Source: Candidatus Latescibacterota bacterium
Lineage (GTDB): Bacteria > Latescibacterota > UBA2968 > GCA-2709665
Length of the DNA stretch: 64,000 nucleotides
Direction of reading: 5' to 3'
Assembly (NCBI GenBank): GCA_965222075.1
Contig: OZ244937.1
Location: 128,001-192,000, forward strand
In this document: positions 7,081 through 36,556 of the stretch, piece by piece
How the letters are laid out: every line of letters begins with the position of its first letter
Position numbering within the stretch: position 1 is the stretch's first letter
The notes under the pieces: generated by a model
Databases searched by the model: none
Seen by the model: only the letters and a program-made list of their open reading frames with translations
Told to the model about the DNA's origin: nothing
Position numbers and translations under genes: made by a program

Positions 7081-10000
7081 ATGAATCGCATTTTTTTGGT
7101 TATTGGCATGGTTGCGGCCCTTTGCATATCGGCCGGGCAGGCGTGGTCTCAGTCGTCTTACGGGAAGATCACCGGAAGAGTGACCGACGCGAGTGGTGAG
7201 ATCCTGCCGGGGGCCAATGTGGTCATCGAAGATACGCGCTTCGGGGCGACGTCCGACAGCGATGGCTTCTATGTTATGATCGGTGTGGAGCCGGGCCTTT
7301 ACAAGTTGAAGGCTTCGATGGTCGGCTACGAGGCGGTGGTGCGGCAGGGGGTGAAGGTGGCTGCGGGCCTGACGACGGTGGCGAACTTCACGCTCCGGGA
7401 GTCGGCGATTGAGGCGGCCGAGATCGTGGTGACGGCCGAGCGCCCGCTTGTGGAGGTGGACCGGACCTCGAGCGAGACGAAAATCTCGTCGCAGGAGATC
7501 GCACAGGTTCCGATTATTCGAGACGTGAGGTCGCATCTCCAGTACGCCGTGGGCACCAATGTGAACGACAGCCCCGGCAACGGAGTGCGCATCCGCCACA
7601 TGAGTTATTATTCGATGCGTGCGGCGCAGACCTGGACGTTCGACGGCATTGAGCTGATGAACCTGGACACGTCGCAGCAGACGGCGCCCAGGCAGTACAC
7701 GAACCTGCCCGTGACGTCCATCGGCGAGATGGGCCTCGTAAGAGGGGGCGCCGACGCCTCGCAGGCCTCCTCGCCGGCTGGTGTGATCAATATTGTCAGC
7801 CGGGAGGGATCGCGGATCTACCGCGGCGGCATCGACCTCCGGATCGAGCCGCCCGGCAGGCGGCACCGGGGCGCGAACGTTTACGACGCAACCCCCGGGC
7901 AAGCGGGGGGGGCGAACGGGTACTGGCGGGACAAGCTGCAGTGGAACAATCCCGAATGGGTAAATGAGACCGACCCGGAAACCGGGCAGCAGATCCACGT
8001 GAGGCAGGACTACGAGGGCGCGATCGGACACCTGGTGGAGGGGTGGGTCAGCGGGCCCCTGGCCGATAACGTGACATTTGTGCTGAGTGGGAAGACCAGC
8101 CGATCCAAGCAGACGCTCCCCGGCCCGACGCGGGTGGGGCTGCGCCAGAACAGCGTATTCGGAAAGCTCAGCTTCACGCCTACGTCCAACCTCAAGCTGA
8201 AGGTGGGGTATAACCACTCGAACGAGCCCACGTTTTTCGGGGATACCAACCGGGGTGTGAATTCCAACCTGTTTTTGATTAACGGCACGACGGGGTACGA
8301 GCAGAAGCGGGTGAACCAGATCTTCTACGTGACGGGTACCCACAGCCTCAGCCCCAGGATGTTCCACGAGTTCCAGGTCGCGTATTTTGGAACGAAAACC
8401 GAACCGGACGGCACCGTGGATGGCACGACGACATCCTGGCGGAGGGACGCGCTGGGCCAGTTCAATCTCGACCGGGAGCGCAGGCGTATTGTTGTGGAAG
8501 ACAACCGCCGGTACAATCTCCGCTACGACTTCACCGGTCAGCTCACCCGGCGCAACCTTTTCAAGGCGGGTTTTGTGTTTCAGAACCTCAACAATCTCAA
8601 CTGGGATTACAACCGGTCAAGCGCGACCAACGCCACAATCAAGATTATGGCCAAGAACAGCGAGCCGGGCCAGCGGTATACCGTTAACCGGCTGGCGGCC
8701 TATGTGGACGAAAAGCTGGAATTTCAGGGTATGGTCGTGCACGCGGGCCTGCGCTTCGACAGCTTCTGGGGCGGGCCCGAGCGGACGCTGGCGGGCTTTA
8801 TGAAGGCGCTGCCGGGGTGGCGGACCTACAAGGCCTGGCGGACGGGGCGCGTCCCTCTGGAGCAGACGAGGCCGATGACGAGCCTGTCGCCCCGGATCGG
8901 CCTGTCTCACCCGATCACGGACCGGTCGACCGTGCGGTATTCCTACGGCGTGTACTACAAACCCCCGCAATTCTCGCTGCTGTGGCTGGAGCCCTGGACC
9001 ACGTCGGACGCGCAGAACCACCCCGAGCTGGACGATGTTTGGTTCGATCTGAACTGGATCGGGGGCGGGCAGTGGCGCTTAGACGGCGGGTACCAGAACC
9101 CGGGAGGGCTGCCGAACACGGCCGAATTTGAGGTGACGGGAGAGTGGAACTTCATCAGCGACTTCGTGATGGAGCTGTCCACCTACTACCGCCGGACGGA
9201 GCGCGTGGGCTCCGGCGGTGTGCACCGATTCATTGATCCGGTGCAGACGCTGGCCTATGTGGGGCACCGGGGGCCGAACGCCCGTTTGGAGACAAAGGGC
9301 ATCGAGGTCGGGTTTACCAAGGCCTTTTCCCACAACTTCTCCTTCCGGGTGGGGCTGGACGTGAGCTGGGCGCTCTTCAACTGGTCGGGCGGCTCTCAGC
9401 TCCTGGTCCATACGTATCCGGACTCCAACTTCATCGCCGGGCCGAACTACTTCACCGTGGATGCAAACGACGACCCGGTGCGGTTGACCGCCGACGAGAT
9501 TCGGACGATCGGCCGCAGGGCCAACGACATTATCCGGAAATTACAGGCAGATGGGACGACATTCGCCGGCGCCTGGGGCACCAACCGGCTCGATACGCTC
9601 CGTCCCTGGTACGAGTATCCGGGTCTGAGCGAATCGGAGAAGCAGCGGATGGAGAACCTCTATTTCCAGGATGTGTGGCGGCAGGTGGACGCGTTCCGGG
9701 GGCAGCCGCCGACGACGAACGCCTCGTTCCAGTTCCTCTGGTCTACGCCGATGGACTGGGGAGGGGCCTGGAGGCCGCTCCTGGGCGGTGTGCAGGCGAA
9801 TCTTGTCTGGCGGATCGACAACGGGGGGCAGTTCCAGATTACCCTGCCGGGCACGAGCGTGCAGACCGCCCGCAACCGGCCGGTGTTCGTCCGGACGGAC
9901 ATGAATGTCCAGAAGTCGTTCCGGATAGGGTCGGTCACCCCCACGCTCTACATGGAGGTGTTCAACCTCTTCAATACCTATTACGATTCGTCCTCCGGCG

Positions 10001-10131
10001 CCAACTACATCCGGTGGGGGCTGAAGACGCCCACCCCGAACGATAGCAATTATCTGAAGTACGGCGACTCGAACTTCAGGCGGGGCAGCACGCCAAGGTA
10101 TGTGAACCTGGGAGTGCGGGTCGGCTTCTGA
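7081..10131 (+). CDS. TonB-dependent receptor with N-terminal carboxypeptidase-regulatory-like domain (copy 1)
   Basis: Signal peptide; GKITGRVTD...LPGANVVIE...GATSDSDGFY; EIVVTAERP TonB-box region; plug end AGVINIVSREG; SPRIGLSHPIT; EVFNLFN; C-terminal GVRVGF. Confidence 0.92.
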   Translation: MNRIFLVIGMVAALCISAGQAWSQSSYGKITGRVTDASGEILPGANVVIEDTRFGATSDSDGFYVMIGVEPGLYKLKASMVGYEAVVRQGVKVAAGLTTVANFTLRESAIEAAEIVVTAERPLVEVDRTSSETKISSQEIAQVPIIRDVRSHLQYAVGTNVNDSPGNGVRIRHMSYYSMRAAQTWTFDGIELMNLDTSQQTAPRQYTNLPVTSIGEMGLVRGGADASQASSPAGVINIVSREGSRIYRGGIDLRIEPPGRRHRGANVYDATPGQAGGANGYWRDKLQWNNPEWVNETDPETGQQIHVRQDYEGAIGHLVEGWVSGPLADNVTFVLSGKTSRSKQTLPGPTRVGLRQNSVFGKLSFTPTSNLKLKVGYNHSNEPTFFGDTNRGVNSNLFLINGTTGYEQKRVNQIFYVTGTHSLSPRMFHEFQVAYFGTKTEPDGTVDGTTTSWRRDALGQFNLDRERRRIVVEDNRRYNLRYDFTGQLTRRNLFKAGFVFQNLNNLNWDYNRSSATNATIKIMAKNSEPGQRYTVNRLAAYVDEKLEFQGMVVHAGLRFDSFWGGPERTLAGFMKALPGWRTYKAWRTGRVPLEQTRPMTSLSPRIGLSHPITDRSTVRYSYGVYYKPPQFSLLWLEPWTTSDAQNHPELDDVWFDLNWIGGGQWRLDGGYQNPGGLPNTAEFEVTGEWNFISDFVMELSTYYRRTERVGSGGVHRFIDPVQTLAYVGHRGPNARLETKGIEVGFTKAFSHNFSFRVGLDVSWALFNWSGGSQLLVHTYPDSNFIAGPNYFTVDANDDPVRLTADEIRTIGRRANDIIRKLQADGTTFAGAWGTNRLDTLRPWYEYPGLSESEKQRMENLYFQDVWRQVDAFRGQPPTTNASFQFLWSTPMDWGGAWRPLLGGVQANLVWRIDNGGQFQITLPGTSVQTARNRPVFVRTDMNVQKSFRIGSVTPTLYMEVFNLFNTYYDSSSGANYIRWGLKTPTPNDSNYLKYGDSNFRRGSTPRYVNLGVRVGF

Positions 10132-10143
10132 GAATGGGTACGA

Positions 10144-10171
10144 TGTCGGGGCGACGAAGGTCGCCTCGACA
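10144..10171 (+). other. Intergenic stem-loop between receptor 1 and CTD protein 1
   Basis: TGTCGGGGCGAC-GAAG-GTCGCCTCGACA forms a 12-bp stem with one G.U pair and no U-tract. Confidence 0.6.
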
Positions 10172-10192
10172 CAAACAGGTGGGAGAGATTCG

Positions 10193-12721
10193 ATGAGACG
10201 CATATTCGCATTTGCGGGCGCGCTGTTGATTGCGGGCGCGCTCTGGTGTCCGGCCAAGGCGCAGCGCCCGACCTTTTCCAATGCGGCCGGACAGTCGCTG
10301 ACTCCCCGTCAGCTGACCCGGGGCACGCTTTGGCACAGTTACCTGAGCACCGGCGCAGAGGGGGCGCGGCCGGTGGAGGGGAACTACGCTGGGCTTTACC
10401 TGGATCTGGCCTATCCGGGCTTCGCGCTGATCAGCTGGGGCGGGGGGGGGACGAACGACTTTTCGGCCTATTACGGGGAGCAGCGGAACGCCGGGAGCAT
10501 GCACGTGGACCTGTCGTCGCACAACGGCCGCGGGCACGGGTGGTGGATCGGCACGAAGGTGAACGGCCAGGCGGTGGTGACCTGGGCCAACCCCCTCATC
10601 CCGGCGATGGAGGAGAGCGAGGATGTGGTTGCGATGGCGGTGGATCCATCTGTCGATTTCGGGGGCCGGTATTCAAGCCTCGGGAACGATGTGATCAGCC
10701 CAAACACGGGTCGGGCGATGGCCAACTGGTGGCCCGGCACCGGGGTGGAACTGGATGCGCTGGAGCCAAGGGAGATTTTGAACTACCACATCGGGCAGTA
10801 CAACAGCCCCCTGGTGGACAATGTTCCGGAAGACATCATTCTGAGCAAGTGGACGACGGGTCTGGGCATCACCGGAGAGAAGGCGGCCTTCGCCTGGAAC
10901 CACCCGGACTACGACGATTTTGTGATCACGGAGTGGGTGTTTGAAAACACGGGGGATACGGACGGGGATCGGGCGGCCGACCTGCCGGGGGGAGGCCACG
11001 CCCTTGAGAATGTGTATTTCTCCTTTCACCACCGTTTTATGCCCTCCTCCTCCGGGGTTTCCCGGACGAGCTACAGGGCCTACTACTCCGACTATGGCAC
11101 GGGAGACGGGTGCAGCAGCAACTTCGGGCCGCTGGACAATTCCCAGGACGACAAGATCAAGTACACGGAGTCGCCCAATTACGACGGCCCGGGGACGGCC
11201 CGGGGGCTGAGGCTGACCTACCAGTACGACTGGGACAACTTCTGCCTCACCGGGCCGCTGGCCGATGATATCGGCGACCCGTATCGCTCCGAACTGAGGT
11301 GCTCCCAGTGTACGTTTCCCAGTCTTACCAGAGTGGGGGACATCACATCGCCCGCCTGGATCGGGAAGGCGCCCATCGACGTGGACCCGACGGACGGGTT
11401 CGTGGGAGACAGCGAGGTGTACGAGGCGCCCAAGGTGGCGCAGCAGCCGTTTGCTTACAACTTCTTCCATTTTCTGTACCGATATCCTTCCAGCGCGTCG
11501 GCGGCCATCGGGTTCTTCACCGATGAGCCGAACCCGAACGAGATGAACCACGAGACGCTCTACCAGATGCTCATCAGCACGCCGGACCCGTCCTACTTCA
11601 ACGAGCCGCTGTTAGAGCGCCAAAGCCGGGGATCGGGCAACCCCAACCTGGGGGTGCCGCTCCTCGCCGTGCCGGATAACCCGACCGAGCCGATGCCCTA
11701 TATGCCTGTTCCCACCTGGGAGTGGGAGGGTCGGCACGGGATTGCGGCTGCGTACACGCCCATGGAGACCTACGGTCCCTACGACCTGGCGCCGGGCCAG
11801 AAGGTGAAGTTCGTGTTCGCATACGTGGGAGGCGCTCCGGTGACCGAGAACTTCCGGACCTATCAACAGGCGGGAAACACCAGCGAACTGAAAAAGGAGG
11901 AGGACGGAGCGGCTTTTACCAACCTGCTCAACCACCTGAAGAAGGCGAAGGAGGCCTACGAACTGGGCTACGACCTGCCCAACCAGCCGCCGGACGTGGA
12001 CGCGTGGGTGGGGTCCTCGGAGAATGCGCAAAACCTGGTCACCTGGAAGGGCGACCCGGAGAAGTCGAGCAACCCGGACACGGGCAGCCCGGACGTGGCG
12101 GGCTACCGGGTGTATCAGTCGGCAACCCAGCCCGGCCTCTGGAATCAGATTGCGGATGTGCCCGCGAACGGTTCGGCGGAATACTCATTTGAGGACAACC
12201 AGTCGCTGGCGGGGTTTGAATACTATTATACCGTGCGTTCCTATCAGGGCAGCGCGAACACCGCATTTGTCAGCGACGTGACGGGCCAGACTGTTGAGGG
12301 CGGCGTCTCGGCCTACGAATCCGGATCCGGGGACGCGTCGACCTATTACCTGCCTTCCAGCGGGGCCAGCCCGGACAGCCCGGTGCAGGTGCCTTCGAGC
12401 GGCGCAGATCTGCTGGATAAAGACATCCTCATTGTGCCCAACCCCTACACTCCGGACAGCCCGCATACCTATGAGGCCTCGACCAAGATCCGCATCCTGA
12501 ACGTGCCCAGGAAGGCCAAGATCCGGATCTTTTCCGTGGCCGGGGATCTGGTGGGGGAGATCGATCACGATTCGCAGAGTGTGGGCGAGGCGGCTTACTT
12601 CCAGTTCAACAGGACGCATATTACCCAGCTGACCTTCGGGGTCTACTTTGTGACCGTCGAGTCCCTGTTGCCCGAGAGCCAGGGCAAGATCAAGGGCACC
12701 AAGTTCGTGATTATTCGTTAA
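10193..12721 (+). CDS. Large secreted protein with FN3-like domain and T9SS-like C-terminal domain (copy 1)
   Basis: Signal peptide (AKA|QR); ENTGDTDGD; FN3-like DVAGYRVY...YYYTVRSY; CTD ILIVPNPY...IRILNVP..AKIRIFSVAGDLV..IDH...GVYFVTVES...KFVIIR. Confidence 0.85.
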   Translation: MRRIFAFAGALLIAGALWCPAKAQRPTFSNAAGQSLTPRQLTRGTLWHSYLSTGAEGARPVEGNYAGLYLDLAYPGFALISWGGGGTNDFSAYYGEQRNAGSMHVDLSSHNGRGHGWWIGTKVNGQAVVTWANPLIPAMEESEDVVAMAVDPSVDFGGRYSSLGNDVISPNTGRAMANWWPGTGVELDALEPREILNYHIGQYNSPLVDNVPEDIILSKWTTGLGITGEKAAFAWNHPDYDDFVITEWVFENTGDTDGDRAADLPGGGHALENVYFSFHHRFMPSSSGVSRTSYRAYYSDYGTGDGCSSNFGPLDNSQDDKIKYTESPNYDGPGTARGLRLTYQYDWDNFCLTGPLADDIGDPYRSELRCSQCTFPSLTRVGDITSPAWIGKAPIDVDPTDGFVGDSEVYEAPKVAQQPFAYNFFHFLYRYPSSASAAIGFFTDEPNPNEMNHETLYQMLISTPDPSYFNEPLLERQSRGSGNPNLGVPLLAVPDNPTEPMPYMPVPTWEWEGRHGIAAAYTPMETYGPYDLAPGQKVKFVFAYVGGAPVTENFRTYQQAGNTSELKKEEDGAAFTNLLNHLKKAKEAYELGYDLPNQPPDVDAWVGSSENAQNLVTWKGDPEKSSNPDTGSPDVAGYRVYQSATQPGLWNQIADVPANGSAEYSFEDNQSLAGFEYYYTVRSYQGSANTAFVSDVTGQTVEGGVSAYESGSGDASTYYLPSSGASPDSPVQVPSSGADLLDKDILIVPNPYTPDSPHTYEASTKIRILNVPRKAKIRIFSVAGDLVGEIDHDSQSVGEAAYFQFNRTHITQLTFGVYFVTVESLLPESQGKIKGTKFVIIR

Positions 12722-12733
12722 GGAGAGATTGTT

Positions 12734-13702
12734 ATGCGGAGCATTCATCAGATCGGATTTGCGGCGCTCTTCGGTGTTCTGGCCCTCTCCGCACCGGCGC
12801 TGGCGGATATCTCGAACCAGACCCCGGTGGGCGAGACCTACGCCACCTTTTTAGAGGTGGCCCAGGGCGCGAGGGCCGCAGGAATGGGAGACGCCTATGT
12901 GGCCGTATCGGACGACATCAATGCCGTGTTCTGGAACCCGGCCGGACTGTCGGCCATGCCGGCGAACCGGTTCCAGTTTATGTTCACCAACACCCGGTGG
13001 CTCCTGGAGTCGAATTTTAATTCCGGAGCCGTGGGCATCAATTCCAGCTACGGGGCGTTTGCCTTGAGTATGGTGACGTTCTCAACCGGTGACATCGAGG
13101 AGACGACCATTTTCGACCCGCAGGGAACGGGCCGCACGCTGGATACCGGGGCCTGGGCCGTGGGTGGGGCCTATGCCAAGCGGTTCACAGACCGGTTTTC
13201 CATTGGTTTCCAGATGCGGGTGATCCAGGAAAGGCTGGACAGGGACGTCGACTACAGGACGTTCGACCTGGCGGTGGGGACCTTTTACCACACCGGCTTC
13301 CGGAGCCTTCGAATCGCCATGTCGCTGCGGAACTTCGGGAAAGACATAGTGCTTCTGACGGACGAGGCGATCCGGGGTAAGATGCCCGTTTCCTTCAGCC
13401 TGGCGACGGCCGCCGAGGTGTACGGGGAGCGGGGCGACGACGTTTCGCTGACCGGGGCTCTTGAGGCGCTCTACAACGTGAGCGTTGAGCGGCGGGTGCA
13501 TGTGGGAGGGGAACTCTGGCTGCGGAACATTATCGCGCTGCGGGGCGGATACAAGTGGAACTACGATGTGCAGGACTTTACCGCCGGGGCGGGGGTGCGG
13601 CTGCAGCGGGGCATACACTACTTACAGGTCGATTTTGCCTGGGTGAAGTTCGATAAGTTCCCCACCAACCCCCTGCGGTTCTCCCTGACGGGATCGTTCT
13701 GA
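12734..13702 (+). CDS. PorV/PorQ-family outer-membrane barrel (copy 1)
   Basis: ATFLEVAQGARAAGMGDAYVAVSDDINAVFWNPAGL PorV-type N-terminal motif; ALRGGY; C-terminal RFSLTGSF. Confidence 0.9.
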   Translation: MRSIHQIGFAALFGVLALSAPALADISNQTPVGETYATFLEVAQGARAAGMGDAYVAVSDDINAVFWNPAGLSAMPANRFQFMFTNTRWLLESNFNSGAVGINSSYGAFALSMVTFSTGDIEETTIFDPQGTGRTLDTGAWAVGGAYAKRFTDRFSIGFQMRVIQERLDRDVDYRTFDLAVGTFYHTGFRSLRIAMSLRNFGKDIVLLTDEAIRGKMPVSFSLATAAEVYGERGDDVSLTGALEALYNVSVERRVHVGGELWLRNIIALRGGYKWNYDVQDFTAGAGVRLQRGIHYLQVDFAWVKFDKFPTNPLRFSLTGSF

Positions 13703-13739
13703 TCCCGCAGGTGCGGGGCAGTACCATTGACGTGAACCC

Positions 13740-13785
13740 GATAGGCGGCTTTTGTTGATTGTGACAGGGCCGCCTATCTGTTTAT
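13740..13785 (+). terminator. Putative intrinsic terminator after PorV copy 1
   Basis: GATAGGCGGC (13740-13749) and GCCGCCTATC (13769-13778) are a perfect inverted repeat, followed by TGTTTAT. Confidence 0.65.
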
Positions 13786-13804
13786 ATAAGGGTGTGACGG
13801 CATT

Positions 13805-16570: not shown

Positions 16571-16772
16571 AGGCGTAGACCCCTCCAGCGCCGGATGCCA
16601 ACGCGAGAGGCTTGCAGCCTCACAGACGCCATCCTCCGGAAGGGTGGCGTTCGGCTTTCGGAAAGCGATTGAAAGGAGGACTGGAGGATGGCGAAGGACC
16701 TCTTGGCGATGGCGCGGGCGCTGGGTCAGGATTCCGTCTGAAGGATGCGGGGAGCTTTTGAAGAGGCAGGCA

Positions 16773-18884: not shown

Positions 18885-18943
18885 GGTGATGAATACGGGA
18901 TTTTTCATTTGTGCAACCGCGGGCAGTACACCGCAGAGGAACC

Positions 18944-24880: not shown

Positions 24881-24897
24881 ACGGGGGAGGCTGGAGC

Positions 24898-27390: not shown

Positions 27391-29385
27391 ATGGACGATC
27401 CTGTTTCGGTACAGAAACGAGATGAAAGCGCCGGGGTTCTCCAGGCGTCGGTCCCCCCCCTCACGACTCGTGCGGTAACGCCCCGAGCTCTGGGAACGGC
27501 CCTGCTGATCATCGTGGCCGGCGTGCTCTGGGACGAGTGGGCGGCCTACTACCTCCGCGGATCGCGGTTGACCCGCAGTCACTTTCCGATGGCGGTATTC
27601 TTCCCGTTTCTGTCGGTGACGGTCCTCAGTATGCTGATAAACCGGTTCCGGCCGGGTCGGGGGTTGACCAGGCCGGAGTTGCTGGTCGTGCTGGGGATGG
27701 GCCTGGTGGCCATGACGATACCTTTCGACGGCCTGACGGGAGGGCTGATCGGAATCCTGGGCGGGTCCACCTATCTGGCCTCCCCCGAAAACGGCTGGGC
27801 GCTCTACATCCACGACCACATCCCGGCCTGGCTGGTGCCCCACGACCGGGGCAACGCCATCGTCTGGTTCTACGAGGGCGTACCACCCCGGGGAGAGTTT
27901 CCCGCCTTGGGGGCCTGGGTCACTCCCCTGTTCTGGTGGACCACCCTGGTCGGGGGGCTGGCCTTCTCCCTGTTCTGCCTGGTCGTGATGCTCCGCAAGC
28001 AGTGGTCCGAGCACGAACGCCTGACCTATCCCCTGATGGAAGTTGGGCAGATGCTGACGGAGACGGAAGCCGGCGGACGGATGCCGGCGCTTTTCCGCTC
28101 CCCGCTCTTCTGGTCGGGCTTCGGGCTGGTGATGGGACTCAAGATGTGGAACGTGGTCTCCTATTTCTCCCCCCTCTTTCCAGCAGTTCCGTTTGAGGGG
28201 GCACGGCTTATCCTGATGCCCGACTTTCCCCATCTGATCCGGCGCGTCAGCTTCTATGCCGTCGGGTTCGGCTACTTCGCCCGGCTGGACGTGCTGTTCA
28301 GCGTCTGGTTCTTCTTGCTGGCGACCGGGTTCGAGGTGTTCGCGTTCAACCGGTTGGGCTACGCCCTCGGCGCCTCGGAGGATCAATGGTCCAGCGTGGC
28401 GCTCTCTTGGCAAAGCCTCGGTGCGCTCATATTTCTGGCCGGCTGGAGCCTCTGGATGGCTAGGGTCCACCTGGGCAACGTCTGGCGGAAGGCCCTACAC
28501 CCCGGCTGCGAGGTGGACGACAGCAGAGAGCTCATCTCCTATCGTCTGGCCGTCCTCGGCCTCGCGGGCTCCCTGCTCTTTGTCGGCGGATGGCTGCACG
28601 CGGCCGGGATGGAACCCACGGTTGTACTCACGTTTCTGCCGGTCTCGCTGCTCATCTACCTGGGACTCTCCAGAGTGGTGGCGGAGCTGGGCCTGGTCTA
28701 CGTCTACCACACAGTCTACCCCTACAGGGCGATGATCCAGGCCTGGGGCACCCAGACCCTTGGCCATTCCAGCGTCACAACCCTCTCGTTCATGCACGTC
28801 TTCCACAGCCTGGGTCGGGGGTTTGTCACCCCGGCGTTCACCCAGGCGGTCAAGGCCGTTGAATGGGTCGCCAGCCCCAGAAAGATCGCCTTCGCGCTCT
28901 GGTTGGCCCTGGCTGTCGCTCTGGCCGTCTCCATCTCCGATACGCTCGCACTCGGGTATTATTACGGCGGATACAACATGAAAGGTCAGATGCTCTGGGC
29001 CCCCCGCACGACCTTCAACTACACCGTCTCGGCCATTCGAAATCCCGCCCCGCCGGGAGGCGAGGGACGCGTCGCGTGGGCCGCCATAGGCGCCGTGGCT
29101 ATGGCGTTGCTCACGCTGGTACGCTACAGGGCGCCCTGGTGGCCGCTCCACCCGATCGGATTGGCCATACAGGGGGGCTGGGGCGTCACCAAGTCCGGTA
29201 TGTCCGTCTTCCTGGTCTGGGCGGTCAAGTCCATCATCGTTCGGATCGGAGGGGCCGGACTCTACGAGCGGGGAAAGCCCTTTTTTGTCGGGATCCTCGC
29301 GGGCCAGGCGCTCAGTACGGCCGTGATCTTCGTCATCGATATGATCTGGTTTCCGATAAAGGGCCACAATGTTCACAATTACTGA
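27391..29385 (+). CDS. DUF6785/DUF6784-like polytopic membrane protein (copy 2)
   Basis: Paralogue of 20978-22972: YLASPENGW, QWSEHERLTYP, LDVLFSVWFF, DDSRELISYR, WPLHPIG. Confidence 0.8.
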   Translation: MDDPVSVQKRDESAGVLQASVPPLTTRAVTPRALGTALLIIVAGVLWDEWAAYYLRGSRLTRSHFPMAVFFPFLSVTVLSMLINRFRPGRGLTRPELLVVLGMGLVAMTIPFDGLTGGLIGILGGSTYLASPENGWALYIHDHIPAWLVPHDRGNAIVWFYEGVPPRGEFPALGAWVTPLFWWTTLVGGLAFSLFCLVVMLRKQWSEHERLTYPLMEVGQMLTETEAGGRMPALFRSPLFWSGFGLVMGLKMWNVVSYFSPLFPAVPFEGARLILMPDFPHLIRRVSFYAVGFGYFARLDVLFSVWFFLLATGFEVFAFNRLGYALGASEDQWSSVALSWQSLGALIFLAGWSLWMARVHLGNVWRKALHPGCEVDDSRELISYRLAVLGLAGSLLFVGGWLHAAGMEPTVVLTFLPVSLLIYLGLSRVVAELGLVYVYHTVYPYRAMIQAWGTQTLGHSSVTTLSFMHVFHSLGRGFVTPAFTQAVKAVEWVASPRKIAFALWLALAVALAVSISDTLALGYYYGGYNMKGQMLWAPRTTFNYTVSAIRNPAPPGGEGRVAWAAIGAVAMALLTLVRYRAPWWPLHPIGLAIQGGWGVTKSGMSVFLVWAVKSIIVRIGGAGLYERGKPFFVGILAGQALSTAVIFVIDMIWFPIKGHNVHNY

Positions 29386-29831: not shown

Positions 29832-32800
29832 ATGAATCGATGGATATTAATATGTCTCACAGTTGCCGCCGGCGTCTGCCTGGCAGTCGCACCGGCGGAA
29901 TCCCAGATCCTATCCGGGAAAATGACCGGTGTCGTGACGGATCCGAACGGATCCTCGCTGCCCGGCGCCAACGTCGTCGTTAAGGGCACCCGCTACGGGA
30001 CCACGGCCGACCCCGAAGGGGTCTACGTGATCCTCGGCGTGGAGCCCGGCGTCTACGAAATTGAGGCCTCGCTCGTCGGCTACAGCACGGTCGTCCGCAA
30101 GAACGTGCGCGTGGTCGGGGGCCGGAGCATCAAGGCCAACTTCACCCTGCGGGAGACCGCGATCCAGGCCGAGGAGATTGTCGTCACCGCAAAGCACCCG
30201 CTCATCGAGGTCGACCGCACCGGGAGCGAGACCAAGATCCTGAAGGAGGCCATCGAGCAGGTCCCGATCATCCGAGACGTGCAGGGACACCTCGAGCACG
30301 TCTCCGGTGTGGACGTGCTCAGCGCCCGGGACGGAGGACGAGGCTATACTGACGACAACGGCATCCGCATCCGCCGGCAGGTCGGGGATACGATGGGTTC
30401 CGGCCAGACCTGGACCCTCGACGGCATGGAGTTAACCATCCTCGATGTCGGATTCATCAGCAACCTGCGGCAGTACAACAACCTCCCGGTCACCGCCATC
30501 TCCGAAATGGCGATCGTCAAAGGCGGCATCGACGCCTCCCAGGCCTCGGCCGTCGCCGGCGTCATCAACATGGTCTCGCGCGAGGGCACCCGGGCTATCC
30601 ACGGGGGGATCGACGTGAGAATCGAGCCCTCCGGGAGACGCCACCGCGGGCCCAACATCTACGACGCGGTCGCCGGCCAGGCCGGCGGGACGAACGGGCT
30701 GTGGCGGGACAAGCTCAAGTGGGACGACCCGGACTGGGTCAACGAAGTCGACTCGGTTACCGGCGAGCAGGTCCACGTCAGGCAGGATTACGAGGGCGCG
30801 ATCGGGCACTTGGTTGAGGGGTGGGTCTCCGGTCCCCTGGGCGAGAACACCACCTTCTTCGTCAGCGGCAAGACCAGCCGGGACAAGGTTGTCTTTCCCG
30901 CCCCGGAGCGGATCGGGCTCCGGCAGTGGTCCATCTTTGGGAAACTCACCCATACCCTCGCGGACAACCTCAAACTCAAAATCGCCTACAACCAGTCGAA
31001 CGAGCCAAAGTACCAGGGAGACGTCCGGGGTCCGGGCGACGTCCTGGGTTCCACCTCCAACCTCTTCCTGGTCAACGGGTTCACCGGATACGAGGAGCAG
31101 CACCGGAACCGCGTCGTCTACGCCACCGTCACCCACGCGATCAGCCCCCGGACCTTCCAGGAGATGCAGGTCGGCTTTTTCGGCACGATCGTCGACACCA
31201 CCGACAAAACGCCCACGACCTCGGGGGGCTGGCGGAAGGACGAGGACGGCAAGTTCAACCTCTATCGAGACTACAGGCGGCTCTACGTCGACAACAACCG
31301 GCGCTACAACCTCCGCTACGACCTCACCAGCCAGGTGACCCGGCGAAACCTGCTCAGGACCGGGTTCACCTACCAGATTTTCAATAACACCAACATGCAG
31401 TTCGTGCAGAATAACGCCTCCCGGGGATCCATCAAGATCATCGCCGGGGGAGACTACCTCCCCGGTGAGCGCTACACCGCCCAACGGTTCAACTGGTATT
31501 TCTCGGACAAGGTCGAGTTCCAGGGCCTGATCGTCAACTTCGGCCTCCGCTACGACCGCCTCTGGGGCGGGCCGGAAAAGGCGATCGGGGGCTGGTACCG
31601 CGGGCAGCCAGGGCTCCGGACTTACAATGCCTTTGTCACCCGCACCCCTCGGGGAAAGATGAGACCGCTGGCCACCTGGTCACCCCGGATCGGGGTCTCC
31701 CACCCGCTCACCGACCGGGCGGTGCTCCGCTACTCCTTCGGGCTCTACTACAAACCGGCGATGTTCGGGCAGATCTGGGGCGAGGGCTTTGTCGGCACCA
31801 ACCTCAAGGTTGATCCCACCCTCGCGCCGGGGGCCACCACCTGGATGGACGACACCAACGGCACCGGAACCGCCTGGCGGATGGACAGCACCTGGCACAA
31901 CCCGAGCGGGCTTACCAACACGACCGAGTTCGAGGCGGCGGCCGAATGGAACTTCGTCAGCGACCTCGTCCTGGACGTGGGAACCTACTTCCGCCGGGTG
32001 GAGCGCGTCACCGGGCTCACCCTCAAGCGTTGGTGGGACCCCATCCAGGGCCTGCTAAACCGGCACGGCGGCAACGGCCCCCACGGGCGGTTCGAGTCCA
32101 AGGGCCTGGAGCTTTCGGTTTACAAGCCCTTCTCCGAAAACTTCTCGTTCCAGACCTCCTTGGACGTCGGGTGGAGCTTCTACAACATCGCCTCCGGGAT
32201 CGGGGTGCCCCGCGGGCACTACTTCTACCCCGACTCGACATTTATCGCCAGCCCCCACTACTTCCTGACGGACAAGGATGATAACCCGGTGGCGCTCACG
32301 GATGCACAGGTCCGAGACATCGGCCACGCCGCCAACGAGCAACTCAAGTCCCTGGGCAGATCGCTCGAGAACCAGACCAACACCCGGGTCCGGACCGGCC
32401 CGCTCACGCCCCTCAGGGACTACCCCGACTTCACGGATGAGGAGCGGAACCGGTCGGATATCCAGGGGATCTGGTTTACCGAACGGTATCTGAATGACCA
32501 GCGGGTCCGCATCTTTGCGCCCCCGGTGGCCAACGCCTCCTTTCAGTTCCTCTGGTCCACTCCCCCCGACTGGGGTCCCGGGCCGCTCGTGGGCGGCGCC
32601 AGGCTGCTCGGAGGCATCCAGGCCAACCTGGTCTGGCGCTACGACAGCGGGCAGGTGATCAAGTTCACCCCGGCAGGGGCTTCGACCGAAGTCTCCCGCA
32701 GGGGCCCGCAGTTCGTCCGCACGGACCTGAACTTCCAGAAGAGCCTCGCATTCGGGATCGTCCGACCCACCCTTTACGCGGAGGTCTTCAACCTGTTCAA

Positions 32801-32966
32801 CTCCCAGGTCGACCGGGAGCGCAGCTATCCCGGGGTCAACTACCTCCGGTGGGGGCTCTACAGACCCGCCCCCAACGACAAGAACCTGCAGAAGTTCGGC
32901 GACCCCAGGCCCTTCCGGGGCGGCGATGCCCGCTACGTCAACCTGGGGGTGCGGGTCCGATTCTAG
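29832..32966 (+). CDS. TonB-dependent receptor (copy 2)
   Basis: Paralogue of 7081-10131, sharing HVRQDYEGAIGHLVEGWVSGPL, NRRYNLRYD and YVNLGVRV.F; AAGGAGGT RBS. Confidence 0.92.
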   Translation: MNRWILICLTVAAGVCLAVAPAESQILSGKMTGVVTDPNGSSLPGANVVVKGTRYGTTADPEGVYVILGVEPGVYEIEASLVGYSTVVRKNVRVVGGRSIKANFTLRETAIQAEEIVVTAKHPLIEVDRTGSETKILKEAIEQVPIIRDVQGHLEHVSGVDVLSARDGGRGYTDDNGIRIRRQVGDTMGSGQTWTLDGMELTILDVGFISNLRQYNNLPVTAISEMAIVKGGIDASQASAVAGVINMVSREGTRAIHGGIDVRIEPSGRRHRGPNIYDAVAGQAGGTNGLWRDKLKWDDPDWVNEVDSVTGEQVHVRQDYEGAIGHLVEGWVSGPLGENTTFFVSGKTSRDKVVFPAPERIGLRQWSIFGKLTHTLADNLKLKIAYNQSNEPKYQGDVRGPGDVLGSTSNLFLVNGFTGYEEQHRNRVVYATVTHAISPRTFQEMQVGFFGTIVDTTDKTPTTSGGWRKDEDGKFNLYRDYRRLYVDNNRRYNLRYDLTSQVTRRNLLRTGFTYQIFNNTNMQFVQNNASRGSIKIIAGGDYLPGERYTAQRFNWYFSDKVEFQGLIVNFGLRYDRLWGGPEKAIGGWYRGQPGLRTYNAFVTRTPRGKMRPLATWSPRIGVSHPLTDRAVLRYSFGLYYKPAMFGQIWGEGFVGTNLKVDPTLAPGATTWMDDTNGTGTAWRMDSTWHNPSGLTNTTEFEAAAEWNFVSDLVLDVGTYFRRVERVTGLTLKRWWDPIQGLLNRHGGNGPHGRFESKGLELSVYKPFSENFSFQTSLDVGWSFYNIASGIGVPRGHYFYPDSTFIASPHYFLTDKDDNPVALTDAQVRDIGHAANEQLKSLGRSLENQTNTRVRTGPLTPLRDYPDFTDEERNRSDIQGIWFTERYLNDQRVRIFAPPVANASFQFLWSTPPDWGPGPLVGGARLLGGIQANLVWRYDSGQVIKFTPAGASTEVSRRGPQFVRTDLNFQKSLAFGIVRPTLYAEVFNLFNSQVDRERSYPGVNYLRWGLYRPAPNDKNLQKFGDPRPFRGGDARYVNLGVRVRF

Positions 32967-32986
32967 CCTTCCCTGAATCCAATCGA

Positions 32987-33029
32987 ATCGGTGGTTGGGT
33001 GGGCAACCGGCTCACCCCGCCACCCCGAT
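32987..33029 (+). other. Intergenic imperfect stem-loop between receptor 2 and CTD protein 2
   Basis: ATCGG-TGG..GGGTGGGC pairs with GCTCACCC..CCACC..CCGAT. Confidence 0.45.
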
Positions 33030-33048
33030 ATTTCGAGAGAGGACCGAT

Positions 33049-35577
33049 ATGCGCATGAAAATGCTCGTCATTTCGGCGGCTGTCCTCGTGGTGGGGACGC
33101 TCGCTGCCTGCGCGGACGCGCAGGACGTCATCGGCGGAACGGCCAACCAGCTCCTCGAACCCCGGCAGCTCACCCGGGGGCAGCTTTGGCTCTCTTACTT
33201 CAACACCGGCGCCTCGGGCTACCGGCACCCCGAGCAGGCCACCGGAAATCTCTTCGCCGACCTCAACTACCCGGGCACCTACATCCCGGGCGGGGACGAC
33301 TTCCAGGAGCACTTCGGGGCCCGCTCCTTCCTCTACGACCAGATCGACATCCAGACTCTCCAGGCCCGCGGCCACGGCTGGTACACCGCCGTCAAGGTGG
33401 ACGGCCAGGAGTCCGTCAGCTACGCCAGCTCCCTCGTCAAGGCCAAGGAGGAGAGCGATGACGTCCTGATGATGACGGTCGACCCGACCGTCGACTTCGG
33501 GGGGCGCTTCGCCAGCGTCGGCAACGACGTGATCAACCCCCGGTCCAGCCGGTCCATGGGCACCTGGTGGCCCGGTACCGGCGTCGTCAACGACGCCAAG
33601 AAGCCGGTCGAGATCCTGAACTACCGGTCCGGGCAATACAACAGCGCCGCCACGGACAACTTCCCCGAGAATATTATCCTCTCCAAGTGGACGACCAAGA
33701 CGGGCATCACCGGCCACAAGGCCGCCTACGCCTGGAACCACCCGGAATACGACGACTTCATCATCGAGGAGTGGATCTGGGAAAACACCGGGGATACGGA
33801 CGGCGACCGGGTGGCCGACCTGCCGGGCGGGGGTCACGACCTGCAGAACGTCTACTTCGGCCTCCACAACCGATTCACCACCTCCTCCTCCGGTTACCGG
33901 GGCAGCCACACCGCCTGGTACTGGGACTGGGGACCGCTGGATTCCTGTTTCAGCCGCTTCCAGCCCAACGCCGATAACGGGCAGGACGACAAGATCAAGT
34001 ATACCGAGTCCCCCAACTACGACGGGCCGGCCTCGGCCGTCGGATTGAAGCTCACCTACCAGTACGACTGGAACAACTTCTGCCTCACCGGGTCCCTGGC
34101 CGACGACGTCGGGGACCCCTGGCGCTCCGTGCTCAAGGCCGCCACCCGCCCGGTCCCCGACTTCACCGACGATGGGGACCTGCTTGGCATCGCTTACGTG
34201 GGCGTCGCGGATATCGACACCGACCCAACCGACGGGTTCATCGGGGACAATGAGGTCTACATCGCCCCCGACGTCGCCCAGCAGCCCTTCGCGCACAACT
34301 TCTTCCACCACGTCCACCGCCAGCAGGACGGCAACACCCGCTCCGACCTGGTCACCGACGAGCCCAATCCGTTCGAAATGAGCGACGCGGTCATGTACCA
34401 GCTCATCACCCGCTCTCCCCCGCTCTCCTACTTCGAGCCGTTCACCTCCCACGACGCCGCCCTGGCCCGCCCCACCCGCGCCTCGGGCGACGAGAATCTG
34501 GGAGTGCCCCTGCTCCCCCTCCCGGACGACCCGACCGAGCCGATGCCCGTCGGACCCATCCCGGAATGGGAGTGGGTCAACCGGCACGGGATCGCGGCCG
34601 CCTACTCGGTGATAGACACCTACGGCCCCTACGACATGGCGCCCGGCGACAAGGTCAAGCTCGTGATCGCCTACGTCGCCGGAGCCCCCGTGGAGCACAG
34701 CTTCAGGACCTACCGCCGGCAGCAGGACAACAGCGAACTCAAAAAGGAGGAGGGCGGCGCCGCCTTCACCAACCTGATCAAGCACCTGAACAAGGCCAAG
34801 GAGGCCTACGCCCTCGGGTTTGACCTCCCCAACCAGCCGCCCGACGTGAACGCCACCCTGCAGTCCTCTGAAAACGCCCGCTCCGAGCTGGTCTGGTCGA
34901 ACGACGCGGACGGGGCCATCAACCCGGACACCGGGCAGCCCGACGTCGCCGGCTACCGCGTCTATCGGTCGGAGACCCTTCCGGACATGTGGGTCCAGTT
35001 CGCCGACGTCAAGGTCGGGACCGCGAGTTCCGGGACCTACCGGGTCGAAGACCCGGAATCGGTCTCCGGCTTCCAGTACCTCTACCAGGTCCGCTCCTAC
35101 CAGGGCAGCGCCAACTCCGGGTTTGTCAGCCGGGTCACGGGCGCCACGGTGGCGGGCGGCGTCTCCGCCTACGAATCGGGTCCGGGAGACCCCTCCACCT
35201 TCTACTACCCTGACGGCGGCGTGAACGGACTCAGCCCGGTGCAGGTCGCCTCGGCCGACGCGGACCGGATGGAGAAGCAGGTCGCGGTGGTCCCCAACCC
35301 CTACATTGATGATGGTATCCATAGCTATGAAGGCACCGTCAAGCTCCGGATCATAAACCTGCCGAGGCGGGCCAAGCTCCGGATCTATTCCATGGCGGGC
35401 GACCTGGTCGGTGCCCTGGATCACGAGTCCGATACGGTGGGGGAACGGAGCTACTACCAGCTCAACAGGCTGATAACGAATGAGATCCAGTTCGGCACCT
35501 ACATCCTGGTCGTCGAGTCGTTGATGCCCGAGAGCCTGGGTCAGACGCAGTTCACCAAATTTGTGATCATTCGCTGA
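33049..35577 (+). CDS. Large secreted protein with FN3-like and T9SS-like C-terminal domain (copy 2)
   Basis: Paralogue of 10193-12721, sharing DDKIKYTESPNYDGP, NLGVPLL..PD.PTEPMP, DLPNQPPDV and KFVIIR. Start ATG 33049 follows GAGAGGA. Confidence 0.85.
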   Translation: MRMKMLVISAAVLVVGTLAACADAQDVIGGTANQLLEPRQLTRGQLWLSYFNTGASGYRHPEQATGNLFADLNYPGTYIPGGDDFQEHFGARSFLYDQIDIQTLQARGHGWYTAVKVDGQESVSYASSLVKAKEESDDVLMMTVDPTVDFGGRFASVGNDVINPRSSRSMGTWWPGTGVVNDAKKPVEILNYRSGQYNSAATDNFPENIILSKWTTKTGITGHKAAYAWNHPEYDDFIIEEWIWENTGDTDGDRVADLPGGGHDLQNVYFGLHNRFTTSSSGYRGSHTAWYWDWGPLDSCFSRFQPNADNGQDDKIKYTESPNYDGPASAVGLKLTYQYDWNNFCLTGSLADDVGDPWRSVLKAATRPVPDFTDDGDLLGIAYVGVADIDTDPTDGFIGDNEVYIAPDVAQQPFAHNFFHHVHRQQDGNTRSDLVTDEPNPFEMSDAVMYQLITRSPPLSYFEPFTSHDAALARPTRASGDENLGVPLLPLPDDPTEPMPVGPIPEWEWVNRHGIAAAYSVIDTYGPYDMAPGDKVKLVIAYVAGAPVEHSFRTYRRQQDNSELKKEEGGAAFTNLIKHLNKAKEAYALGFDLPNQPPDVNATLQSSENARSELVWSNDADGAINPDTGQPDVAGYRVYRSETLPDMWVQFADVKVGTASSGTYRVEDPESVSGFQYLYQVRSYQGSANSGFVSRVTGATVAGGVSAYESGPGDPSTFYYPDGGVNGLSPVQVASADADRMEKQVAVVPNPYIDDGIHSYEGTVKLRIINLPRRAKLRIYSMAGDLVGALDHESDTVGERSYYQLNRLITNEIQFGTYILVVESLMPESLGQTQFTKFVIIR

Positions 35578-35587
35578 GGAGGTCGCC

Positions 35588-36556
35588 ATGCGAAACCTAT
35601 TTCTGTTTGGATGGGCAGCGGCCTTCGCCGCGATCCTCATCTCTTCGCCGGCCGCGGCGGGGATCTCGGGCCAGACGCCCCTGGGCGAGAGCTACGCCAG
35701 CTTCTTAGAGGTGGCCCAGGGGGCCAGACCCGCCGGGATGGGGGATGCCTACGTGGCCGTGGCGGACGACATCACGAGCGTCTTCTGGAACGTGGCCGGA
35801 CTGACCAAGATGGCCAGGAACCGGTTCCAGTTCACCTTTACCAACACCCAGTGGATAGCCGACACCCAGTTCAACTCCGGGGCCGTGGGAATCAACACCA
35901 ACTACGGGGCGATCGCCTTCAGCTTTGTCGCCCTCGACCCCGGCGACATCGAGGAGCGGACCATCTTCCAGCCGGATGGGACCGGCCGGATGGTCGACAA
36001 CGGGAGCTGGGCATTCGGCCTCGCCTACGCCAAGCAATTCACCGACCGGATGTCCGTCGGCGGACAGGGCCGGATCTTCGAAGAGCGGCTCGACACCGAC
36101 TACGGCTACCGCGTGTTCGACCTGGCCGTGGGGGGGATCTACCACACCGGGTTCCGCAGCCTGCGAATCGCGATGTCCCTCCGCAACTTTGGGAAGGACA
36201 AGGTGCTCCTCTCCGATGAACAGAGCCGGAGCAAGATGCCGGTCATCTTCAACGTTGCCGCGGCCGCAGAGGTGCTGGGCACCAAGGAGGATCCGGTCTA
36301 CCTGACCGGCGCCTTCGAGGCCCTCTACAACGTGGCGGTGGAGAAGCGCATCCACGTCGGCGGCGAGCTCTGGCTGCGCAACATCCTGGCGCTCCGGGGC
36401 GGCTACAAGTGGAACTACGACGCCCAGGATTTCACTGTGGGAGCCGGCCTGAAGCTGCAGCGAGGCGTCCACTACCTCCAGGCCGACATCGCCTGGGTGG
36501 ACTTCGGAAAGGACTTCGGCGCCCCCCTCCGCGTCTCCGTGACGGGCTCCTTTTGA
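35588..36556 (+). CDS. PorV/PorQ-family outer-membrane barrel (copy 2)
   Basis: ASFLEVAQGARPAGMGDAYVAVADDITSVFWNVAGL; same length (322 aa) as copy 1; ends TGSF. Confidence 0.9.
   Translation: MRNLFLFGWAAAFAAILISSPAAAGISGQTPLGESYASFLEVAQGARPAGMGDAYVAVADDITSVFWNVAGLTKMARNRFQFTFTNTQWIADTQFNSGAVGINTNYGAIAFSFVALDPGDIEERTIFQPDGTGRMVDNGSWAFGLAYAKQFTDRMSVGGQGRIFEERLDTDYGYRVFDLAVGGIYHTGFRSLRIAMSLRNFGKDKVLLSDEQSRSKMPVIFNVAAAAEVLGTKEDPVYLTGAFEALYNVAVEKRIHVGGELWLRNILALRGGYKWNYDAQDFTVGAGLKLQRGVHYLQADIAWVDFGKDFGAPLRVSVTGSF

Follow-up and report, generated by a model that had tools for sequence, protein, structure and literature searches.

A recurrent gene trio in a Latescibacterota genome as a candidate outer-membrane uptake unit built without SusD

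Introduction

How might a bacterium capture nutrients for its outer-membrane transporters when it has no SusD lipoprotein? This question is raised by a 64,000-nucleotide stretch of DNA from a Candidatus Latescibacterota bacterium (GenBank assembly GCA_965222075.1, contig OZ244937.1), hereafter called the window, which comprises bases 128001–192000 of a single 5,360,005-base genome contig rated 97.6% complete. Twice within the window, a gene for a TonB-dependent transporter is followed by a gene for a secreted protein (the partner) and by a gene for an outer-membrane barrel of the PorV/PorQ family; we refer to each such trio as a cassette. With moderate confidence, we favor the view that the products of each cassette make up an outer-membrane uptake unit of three parts, in which the transporter is served by a substrate-capturing partner whose C-terminal domain (CTD) is retained by the co-encoded barrel. 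The trio probably does the job of the SusC/SusD nutrient-uptake pair of Bacteroides without the SusD lipoprotein.

Results

Two old copies of one gene trio

The window has a G+C content of about 62%. The initial annotation described the same three genes in the same order at two places, and the open reading frames (ORFs) at 7081–13702 and 29832–36556, all six of them on the plus strand, confirm this. Cassette A begins with the transporter gene (7081–10131), whose product of 1016 amino acids has an N-terminal CarboxypepD_reg domain. The partner gene (10193–12721) encodes 842 amino acids, organized as a signal peptide, a β-supersandwich, an FN3 domain and a CTD-like tail, and the barrel gene (12734–13702) encodes 322. 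In cassette B, the corresponding genes lie at 29832–32966 (transporter, 1044 amino acids; CarboxypepD_reg, E = 4.6e-17), 33049–35577 (partner paralogue) and 35588–36556 (barrel, 322 amino acids). The partner frame of cassette B is open from a TTG at 32995, which would give 860 amino acids; the ATG at 33049 is most likely the start, and the length then equals the 842 amino acids of the A copy. The genes are closely spaced, with 61 and 12 nucleotides between them in cassette A and 82 and 10 in cassette B.

Alignment of the paired proteins with BLASTP gave 51% identity for the receptors (1051 columns, full length, E = 0), 57% for the partners (851 columns, tail included, E = 0) and 68% for the barrels (322 columns, E = 1e-165). 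Because these identities extend over the full lengths of the proteins and are far above chance, the sequences indicate that the duplication is both real and old.

Twenty cassettes in one genome

To speak of a duplicated cassette is correct for the window, but it undercounts the genome, which carries 20 cassettes. The count comes from a blastp comparison of the six window proteins with all genome ORFs of at least 150 amino acids, in which 24 receptor-like, 21 partner-like and 21 barrel-like ORFs matched. All 20 trios have the order receptor, partner, barrel, lie on a single strand and show apparent gaps of no more than 141 nucleotides. Eighteen are intact; in one of the others the receptor is broken into two ORFs (907 and 236 amino acids), and in the second a TGA breaks the partner into two (539 and 263 amino acids). 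The Pfam Plug domain was found at 30 places in the genome, 16 of them within cassette receptors and 14 elsewhere. Adding these 14 to the 20 cassette receptors yields about 34 genes for TonB-dependent transporters, 20 of which reside in cassettes. Just one PorV/PorQ-family barrel, of 297 amino acids, is encoded outside the cassettes (G000:C1:3888687-3889580; L112:2688-3581, minus strand). It is best scored as PorQ-like (79.5 bits against a cut-off of 220) and may be the barrel of a general secretion pathway.

The three genes of the cassettes have a common history. Maximum-likelihood trees (quick method, LG+G4) were calculated for the 20 trios, with the largest piece standing in for each of the two broken genes. 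The three gene trees recover the same major clades, one of which holds both window copies and three others. They share 9–13 of 17 splits, and their Robinson-Foulds distances of 8–16 compare with a mean of 33.6 for shuffled labels; 0 of 2000 label shuffles was as good. The initial annotation had treated each trio as a unit, and the congruence of the trees is in keeping with this; what it shows is co-duplication, not physical co-evolution.

The trio in other genomes

We surveyed the range of the trio in a collection holding one genome per GTDB species, and examined the best 80 of 146 stretches encoding a relative (79 distinct loci). When tblastn was run with all 20 paralogues of each gene, receptor, partner and barrel appeared in order at 72 of the 79 loci; synteny is thus kept across phyla. 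Five of the seven remaining loci end on the side of the missing gene. Locus L070 had no barrel match over 5 kb downstream, and L071 had no receptor match over 4.9 kb upstream. The best loci are labeled Candidatus Latescibacterota, Gemmatimonadota, Candidatus Neomarinimicrobiota/Marinimicrobia or Fidelibacterota, with a few "uncultured" bins that are otherwise named. At L072, L075, L077, L080, L082, L087 and L091, a second partner-like gene lies approximately 3–4 kb downstream of the barrel gene, and at L074 a second receptor stands between the barrel gene and the second partner-like gene. On account of this arrangement, we conclude that tandem cassettes are present in these loci too, which are labeled mostly Neomarinimicrobiota, Marinimicrobia or Fidelibacterota.

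Orthologues of cassette A in other Latescibacterota genomes are 83–96% identical, and the duplication that produced cassettes A and B is therefore older than those species. A profile of the partner matched (E ≤ 1e-10) in 76 of the 121 sampled genomes of the phylum, the source genome included, and in 35 of the 52 high-quality ones. All genomes of the two nearest families had it (12/12 and 29/29); a third family has many single, weak matches (1e-13 to 1e-20) that may be domain-level only. An exhaustive search with the partner profile, run on a library clustered at 50% identity, returned 226 representatives at E ≤ 1e-30, 2208 at E ≤ 1e-10 and 6220 at E ≤ 0.001. Gemmatimonadota, Bacteroidota, Fidelibacterota and Ignavibacteriota are the commonest phyla among the look-alike clusters of the Atlas, which we treat as leads only. 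No description of the trio was found in the open-access literature and bioRxiv. In the excerpted text of the 2015 Latescibacteria genome paper (PMC4454575), TonB is mentioned for vitamin B12 and iron only.

Gene 1 encodes a divergent TonB-dependent transporter

The first gene of the cassette is that of a divergent but genuine TonB-dependent transporter, which falls outside the SusC/RagA subfamily as NCBI defines it. CarboxypepD_reg (1.7e-19 in receptor A) is the sole Pfam domain seen in the window receptors. Sixteen of the cassette receptors exceed the Pfam Plug cut-off; the two window copies and two others fail at E ≤ 0.001. Alignment A2, of which the cassette B receptor is a member, supplied both a plug profile and the receptor model. 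The profile of its 18 receptor paralogues matches the plug of FepA, PfeA and Cir (best, 1fep_A at 2.6e-14, profile positions 137–268), as well as the N-terminus of a SusC homolog (8aa4_A, 5.9e-9). The AlphaFold2 model of receptor A has a mean predicted local distance difference test score (pLDDT) of 70.6 and a predicted template-modeling score (pTM) of 0.69. It aligns over its full length to the TonB-dependent transporters Cir, FepA, PirA and SusC (E = 3.9e-22 to 1e-18; target-normalized template-modeling score, TMt, 0.5–0.8), in agreement with a 22-strand barrel that encloses a plug. The best whole-chain matches were Cir (9nn6_A, E = 3.9e-22, TMt 0.72) and the SusC of BT2261-2264 (5fq6_B, 2.7e-20). 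Behind the N-terminal domain, at the place expected for a TonB box, lies the conserved stretch EIVVTAE, a candidate for this element that is reminiscent of the TonB box of BtuB or FepA. Both window receptors have a C-terminal phenylalanine. Measured against the SusC/RagA subfamily model (TIGR04056), they obtained 50.1 and 50.4 bits vs. a cut-off of 368, and only their N-terminal 110–180 residues matched.

The tonB gene that had been placed near the cassettes is real: the ORF at 18911–19696 (plus strand) encodes a TonB-type energy transducer (TonB_C, 1.4e-15). The initial annotation had also noted the lack of a SusD-like lipoprotein, and this is borne out for the whole genome, in which the SusD families PF07980 and PF14322 have 0 matches; the Bacteroides thetaiotaomicron control was positive.

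Gene 2 encodes a supersandwich protein with a PorZ-like tail

The partner is a protein of no named family. The window copies match 0 Pfam families and no enzyme family in Pfam or NCBIfam, and the 22 members of alignment A1 have only weak Pfam matches (Ig_RIMBP2 in four, CHU_C in two). The only label found on a relative reads [quoted passage not shown]. We therefore relied on a model of partner A, which AlphaFold2 built from 22 sequences (mean pLDDT 73.6, pTM 0.79). A Foldseek search with the whole model returned only FN3 tandems, with query-normalized template-modeling scores (TMq) near 0.1, and was set aside; the fold of the N-terminal domain emerged from alignment to all representative chains (the VIA wide search). 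Residues ~22–600 match the N-terminal β-supersandwich of GH65, GH15 and GH94 glycoside hydrolases (GH), which is the non-catalytic domain of these enzymes. The matches include 7fe3_A (Z = 14.7, root-mean-square deviation [rmsd] 3.5, 246 residues, chain range 31–291 of 659), 4zle_A (Z = 13.9) and 1lf6_A (Z = 13.4). This supersandwich is of the galactose-mutarotase-like type, and no catalytic domain comes after it in the partner; residues 601–729 form an FN3 domain (5g56_A, Z = 8.7).

Across 19 paralogues, conservation of the partner is highest in its FN3 domain and tail and extends to the scaffold, while hypervariable, indel-rich segments are located at residues 21–40, 81–100, 301–320, 421–440 and 461–520. 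The earlier description of conserved scaffolds with divergent loops thus holds for the middle protein. Six acidic residues (E194, E213, D319, D320, D346 and D359) are invariant.

A supersandwich need not be a binding module, and the middle protein could act on a polymer at the surface, for example as a lyase, a hydrolase or an epimerase, perhaps still tethered to the barrel. We hold this to be quite unlikely. The best fold matches (Z of 12–14.7) are all non-catalytic N-domains of larger enzymes; lower down, they include the polysaccharide lyases 5no8_A (Z = 10.8) and 3a0o_A (Z = 9.1), the GH174 fucanase 9k1g_B (Z = 8.9) and mutarotase-like proteins (Z = 8.8). The many invariant acidic residues would suit an active site, and no glycoside hydrolase family was found among the window ORFs; the hypervariable loops, set in a constant framework, resemble loops that determine specificity, and the lack of both an enzyme-family match and a following catalytic domain also speaks for a binding protein.

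The tail of the partner (residues 736–842) has the fold of a type IX secretion system (T9SS) CTD, a seven-strand Ig-like sandwich at the extreme C-terminus. It matches the CTD of PorZ (5m11_A) with Z = 10.3, an rmsd of 3.0 over 90 residues and 22% identity, and the NCBIfam model of the PorZ C-terminus matches the partner weakly (E = 0.0089). We scanned ten tails, namely the two window copies and eight paralogues, with sequence models of CTDs. Por_Secre_tail (PF18962) matched three of them, all below its cut-off of 27 bits (best, the A tail, at E = 0.0045 and 17.7 bits). The type-B model CHU_C (PF13585) matched five (E = 0.00045–0.2; highest score 20.7 bits, cut-off 27), and FlgD_ig matched one, again below cut-off; three tails had no CTD-type match at all. 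The cassette B tail had no match to Por_Secre_tail, and TIGR04183 matched neither window partner at E ≤ 0.1. The name "T9SS-CTD surface protein" is thus supported by the fold of the tail, but not by any CTD sequence model above its cut-off. Just upstream of cassette A, the ORF at 6163–6957 encodes a 264-amino-acid protein with an ordinary type-A T9SS tail (TIGR04183, 32.1 bits vs. 23; FlgD_ig, 3e-9); a weak cohesin match was seen in it as well. This shows that the ordinary T9SS cargo of the genome carries a tail unlike that of the cassette partners. As the partner tails fail the CTD models that this protein passes, the partner tail is a distinct, divergent T9SS-type CTD.

The consensus signal peptide of the partner family has a cleavage site of the Ala-x-Ala type, as does that of partner A, and judging from this feature the partner probably lacks a lipid anchor of the lipoprotein type. 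In partner B, the signal peptide (33049–33120) ends in LAAC, which resembles a lipobox.

Gene 3 encodes a PorV/PorQ-family barrel that is predicted to dock the tail

Both window barrels belong to the PorV/PorQ family as defined by NF033709, with 175.7 bits (A) and 151.4 bits (B) against a cut-off of 90. A profile of 17 barrel paralogues (alignment A3) has one solved relative, PorV of Flavobacterium johnsoniae (6h3i_F, 3.7e-19). The more specific models were not reached: barrels A and B obtained 75.3 and 50.8 of the 250 bits for the PorV equivalog (NF033710) and 60.7 and 43.7 of the 220 bits for the PorQ equivalog (NF033711), and both failed that of PorV2. Calling the third gene a dedicated PorV was accordingly right as to the family, but the barrel is neither the PorV nor the PorQ equivalog.

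The question of whether tail and barrel interact was approached by modeling barrel A (alignment A3) with residues 598–842 of partner A (alignment A1) in three runs, alongside three controls. The interface score ipSAE was 0.92, 0.91 and 0.92 for the complex and 0.00, 0.00 and 0.08 for the controls; the mark used here is attained by 116 of 157 solved complexes and by 2 of 215 mismatched pairs. The runs share at least 93% of their contacts, and the pLDDT of the partner was at least 72. On the tail, the predicted contacts involve the invariant VPNP (748–751), G784, G816/Y818 and the last strand (833–842); the barrel side of the interface comprises its N-terminal segment (31–42) and the loops at 116–131, 166–172 and 207–218. 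The contact of the CTD with its co-encoded barrel, which the initial annotation had proposed, is thus predicted, and the model supports binding of the partner tail to that barrel.

Signs of specificity between the pairs were also sought. Position 41 of the barrel is glutamate in the clade with both window copies and lysine, arginine or asparagine elsewhere; inspection of interface covariation by eye revealed no compensating charge change in the tail, which argues neither for nor against specificity. Conservation of the tail hardly differs between interface (0.59) and non-interface (0.56) residues.

Binding of the tail need not mean that the barrel keeps it. The search of the genome for T9SS parts succeeded in part: SprA was found (TIGR04189, 618 bits summed over a 2126-amino-acid ORF; cut-off 200), and a PorU-like ORF of 1961 amino acids scored 212.8 bits, below the cut-off of 420. 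The cassette barrel could be a shuttle only, taking the partner from SprA and yielding it to the PorU-like sortase, which would remove the tail; the partner, free or linked to lipopolysaccharide, would then act as a binding protein or an enzyme without being permanently built into a receptor complex. We judge this unlikely. Shuttling is the canonical role of PorV in the excerpted text of PMC10202324, the predicted contact would suit a shuttle as well as an anchor, and the invariance of the contact motifs suggests generic recognition. The PorU-like gene is present, yet below cut-off, and the nearest solved tail, that of PorZ, is a retained one according to the same excerpts (PMC10202324). Moreover, a single shuttle would suffice, yet all 20 cassettes and 72 of the 79 related loci keep a barrel of their own, and ordinary type-A CTD cargo (6163–6957) bears a different tail, which exceeds its model cut-off.

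Another possibility, which we regard as very improbable, is that the barrel is a FadL-type channel or a transporter assembly factor unrelated to the tail, or that the trio, instead of taking up nutrients, serves as an adhesin or belongs to a surface layer. The barrel has weak matches to FadL/Toluene_X (E = 0.0066) and BamG (E = 1.3e-4), and the TPR/GWxTD and transglutaminase-like neighbors described below are atypical of uptake genes. The PorV/PorQ family score of 175.7 bits is far higher than these matches, however, and the tail–barrel model passes its controls; gene 1 is that of a TonB-dependent transporter, a tonB gene is near and catabolic genes occur at the loci.

RNA-library contigs and RNA features

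One study provided four sponge metatranscriptome runs, whose contigs were aligned to positions 4400–19800, mostly at 99% identity or more. The four RNA libraries, which are labeled sponge metagenome, contain 70–76% of the sampled cassette A words. The contigs cover a small barrel gene upstream (4546–5247, see below) and most of 6.5–13.7 kb at a word depth of ~2–14, with gaps in the receptor gene; in runs X2 and X4, that gene is uncovered at bin 8512–9025. The depth is 0–3 in the 12 bins of 13652–19800, and 13.8–19.8 kb is almost bare. Such uneven cover argues against plain DNA carry-over. Contigs span the partner/barrel junction in all four runs and the receptor/partner junction in two; a contig that spans two genes is no proof of a single transcript. 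Contigs of X1 and X3 skip 123–124 nucleotides at 6072–6197, upstream of and into the start of ORF 6163, which could be a strain-level deletion or an effect of assembly.

The receptor–partner spacers of both window cassettes can form hairpins. Spacer A (10132–10192, plus strand), with a 12-bp hairpin, has a minimum free energy of -23.8 kcal/mol (z = -4.24), and spacer B (32967–33048, plus strand) has one of -34.0 kcal/mol (z = -3.03); 0 of 200 shuffles was as stable in either case. Neither hairpin has a T-run. Fourteen of the 20 cassettes have a comparable hairpin behind the receptor stop and 10 have one behind the barrel gene, as assessed with mononucleotide shuffles, and these structures may set relative mRNA levels within the operon. 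Scans of 4300–19800 for sigma-70 promoters (5 sites vs. 3.4 expected) and intrinsic terminators (12 sites vs. 12.5) did no better than shuffles.

The neighborhood of the cassettes

Several gene families recur beside the trios. The gene at 4546–5247 (plus strand) encodes a small outer-membrane β-barrel protein of 233 amino acids with a weak TIGR04565 match (E = 0.0056). It is of the eight-strand type, and two genes for small secreted proteins separate it from the receptor of cassette A. In nine of the 20 trios, a paralogue of the small barrel precedes the receptor by 14–170 nucleotides, and the cassette A copy lies 1834 nucleotides upstream; within 8 kb upstream of the receptor, the count is 10 of 20. 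OMP_b-brl matches six of the seven small-barrel copies that were scanned, four of them at or above cut-off. Downstream of cassette A, the gene at 13805–16570 (plus strand) encodes a 921-amino-acid protein with TPR families and a GWxTD domain (TIGR04514, 7.3e-12, above cut-off). Its paralogues lie within 8 kb of 11 of the 20 trios, often directly after the barrel gene. A gene for a transglutaminase-core protein (16644–18884) comes after it.

The genes at 20978–22972 (DUF6785, 3.3e-102; DUF6784, 1.4e-17; ~10 hydrophobic segments) and 27391–29385 (DUF6785, 7.8e-106; ~12 hydrophobic segments) are both on the plus strand and encode polytopic DUF6785/DUF6784 membrane proteins of 664 amino acids each; the second lies 447 nucleotides upstream of cassette B. 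Paralogues of these proteins, which constitute one group in an uncharacterized family, are found within 8 kb of 14 of the 20 trios. They are candidates for an inner-membrane permease that would take on what the receptor imports.

Between the cassettes, 22018–26451 holds genes for two homocysteine S-methyltransferase-domain proteins, an FAD amine-oxidase-type protein and a PhyH dioxygenase; together, these proteins might constitute a pathway that acts on a methylated amine or a sulfonium compound. Two AXE1/Abhydrolase_7 esterase genes come after cassette B. A DDE_3 transposase gene (40386–41081, minus strand) lies between the cassette B region and a 22-kb block at 41756–63999. This block contains seven sulfatase genes (the last cut by the end of the window) and genes for four PhyH dioxygenases, two Ldh_2 dehydrogenases, a lactonase, a DHDPS-family enzyme, two aldo-keto reductases and a pectate-lyase-like protein; it looks like a set of tandemly amplified catabolic modules for a sulfated substrate. 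The catabolic island that had been claimed nearby is therefore there, with esterase, sulfatase, pectate-lyase-like and sugar-acid catabolism genes, and the window is a polymer-catabolism setting, although no glycoside hydrolase family was seen among its ORFs.

Discussion

How would the three proteins work together? The gene 1 transporter would import the substrate, energized by TonB, for which the gene at 18911 is at hand. The partner would be exported by Sec and then pass the outer membrane through the SprA translocon by means of its T9SS-type CTD. This domain would stay uncleaved and dock on the extracellular face of the co-encoded barrel, and the partner would thus be kept on the surface, much as PorQ holds PorZ in Porphyromonas. 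The substrate, most likely a fragment of a sulfated or acidic glycan, would be captured by the hypervariable loops of the supersandwich and handed over to the adjacent transporter. The unit would take the role that SusD or surface glycan-binding lipoproteins have in Bacteroidota, and twenty diverged copies would provide twenty specificities. Three elements of this scheme are inferred: that the partner is retained at the surface, that it touches the transporter, be it from above as a lid or from the side, and that the substrate belongs to the class named. The partner may be a SusD-like cap, a surface glycan-binding protein beside the transporter or an enzyme.

A number of observations weigh against this scheme. 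None of the ten partner tails reaches the cut-off of any T9SS CTD sequence model. The GldL, GldM and GldN models had 0 matches in the genome, and the control genomes gave none either. The GldK model matches only below its cut-off and only with its C-terminal part; these matches look like unrelated proteins that have the C-terminal domain of GldK in common, and we discarded them. The picture suggests a T9SS without a recognizable motor or with very divergent parts, the searches for GldL, GldM and GldN having no positive control. As for docking, solved PorV–cargo structures exist, and the score may partly reflect likeness to those. In addition, no paralogue deviates in the strongest contact motifs; for this reason one barrel might bind any tail, and "dedicated" would then refer to co-expression rather than to specificity. 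A supersandwich can be catalytic, as the lyases and the GH174 fucanase among its matches (Z = 8.9–10.8) illustrate, and no glycoside hydrolase family accompanies the cassettes in the window. Finally, the RNA contigs come from one study whose runs were picked for containing this stretch, and may include DNA carry-over.

The cassette has partial counterparts among known systems, foremost the SusC/SusD (RagA/RagB) pairs and utilisomes of Bacteroidota. Like these, it comprises a CarboxypepD_reg-type TonB-dependent transporter followed by the gene of a surface partner, occurs in many diverged copies per genome and sits amid catabolic genes; its receptor model matches SusC structures (5fq6_B, E = 2.7e-20; 8aa4_A). 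Unlike them, it has an obligatory third gene, that of the PorV-like barrel, and its receptor fails the SusC/RagA model. The partners differ as well: SusD is a lipoprotein of helical fold, whereas the cassette partner has no SusD family match, adopts a β-sandwich fold and is probably no lipoprotein.

The tether itself has precedents. In the PorQ–PorZ and PorV–PorU pairs of the Porphyromonas gingivalis attachment complex, a CTD protein keeps its tail on a PorV-family barrel; excerpts of PMC10202324 state that the PorZ CTD is kept to bind PorQ and that cognate PorV-like barrels are proposed to shield CTDs from cleavage. The tail of the cassette partner is closest to that of PorZ (Z = 10.3, 22% identity), but the cassette pair stands outside the secretion machine, is coupled to a TonB-dependent transporter and is repeated 20 times, and its barrel fails both equivalogs. 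The passengers are also dissimilar, that of PorZ being made of β-propellers and that of the cassette being a supersandwich. Type-B CTD cargo offers a second parallel: its genes cluster with those of their own PorP/SprF barrels, as for SprB–SprF of Flavobacterium, and the barrel is a proposed anchor (PMC10202324, in excerpt). The likeness extends to the weak CHU_C matches in five of the ten cassette tails; the type-B cargo proteins are adhesins with no TonB-dependent transporter, and the cassette barrels score in the PorV/PorQ family. The HasR–HasA hemophore system and XusA–XusB also combine a receptor with a separate substrate-capturing protein, and both receptors are among the fold matches of the cassette receptor (3ddr_A, 9gbc_A). 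In these systems the partner is either a hemophore secreted in free form or a lipoprotein, not a protein anchored by a T9SS tail and a barrel. Accordingly, the principle of a CTD held by a PorV-family barrel is already known, at least from the excerpts of PMC10202324; what is new is that the CTD/barrel pair is coupled to a TonB-dependent transporter, as the main transporter format of the genome, conserved in at least two to three phyla without SusD.

A bolder version of the scheme, which is possible but doubtful, would have the trio form a stable complex. In it, the T9SS-delivered partner would retain its tail on a private PorV paralogue and serve as the substrate-binding lid over the transporter, and this lipoprotein-free complex would be the main glycan importer of several phyla allied to Bacteroidota, namely Latescibacterota and Neomarinimicrobiota/Fidelibacterota, with Gemmatimonadota and Ignavibacteriota added by the Atlas lead only. 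Secretion in these organisms may proceed through SprA without a recognizable PorKLMN motor. If this were true, the PorV family would have two ancient roles, as a secretion shuttle and as a structural anchor of uptake complexes.

SusC/SusD pairs serve as the marker by which polysaccharide-utilization loci are found, and they are considered a hallmark of Bacteroidota. The polymer uptake capacity of the abundant uncultured groups discussed here is currently read from carbohydrate-active enzymes and sulfatases alone, and the partner family, with 226 representatives at E ≤ 1e-30, yet has no Pfam family. Should the trio be a counterpart of SusC/SusD, glycan-uptake loci would become recognizable in sponge-associated Latescibacterota and in marine SAR406-type lineages. 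The known use of PorV-family barrels would likewise widen from secretion to the anchoring of nutrient-capture proteins, and the trio offers a testable model for how binding proteins may be placed on the cell surface without surface lipoproteins.

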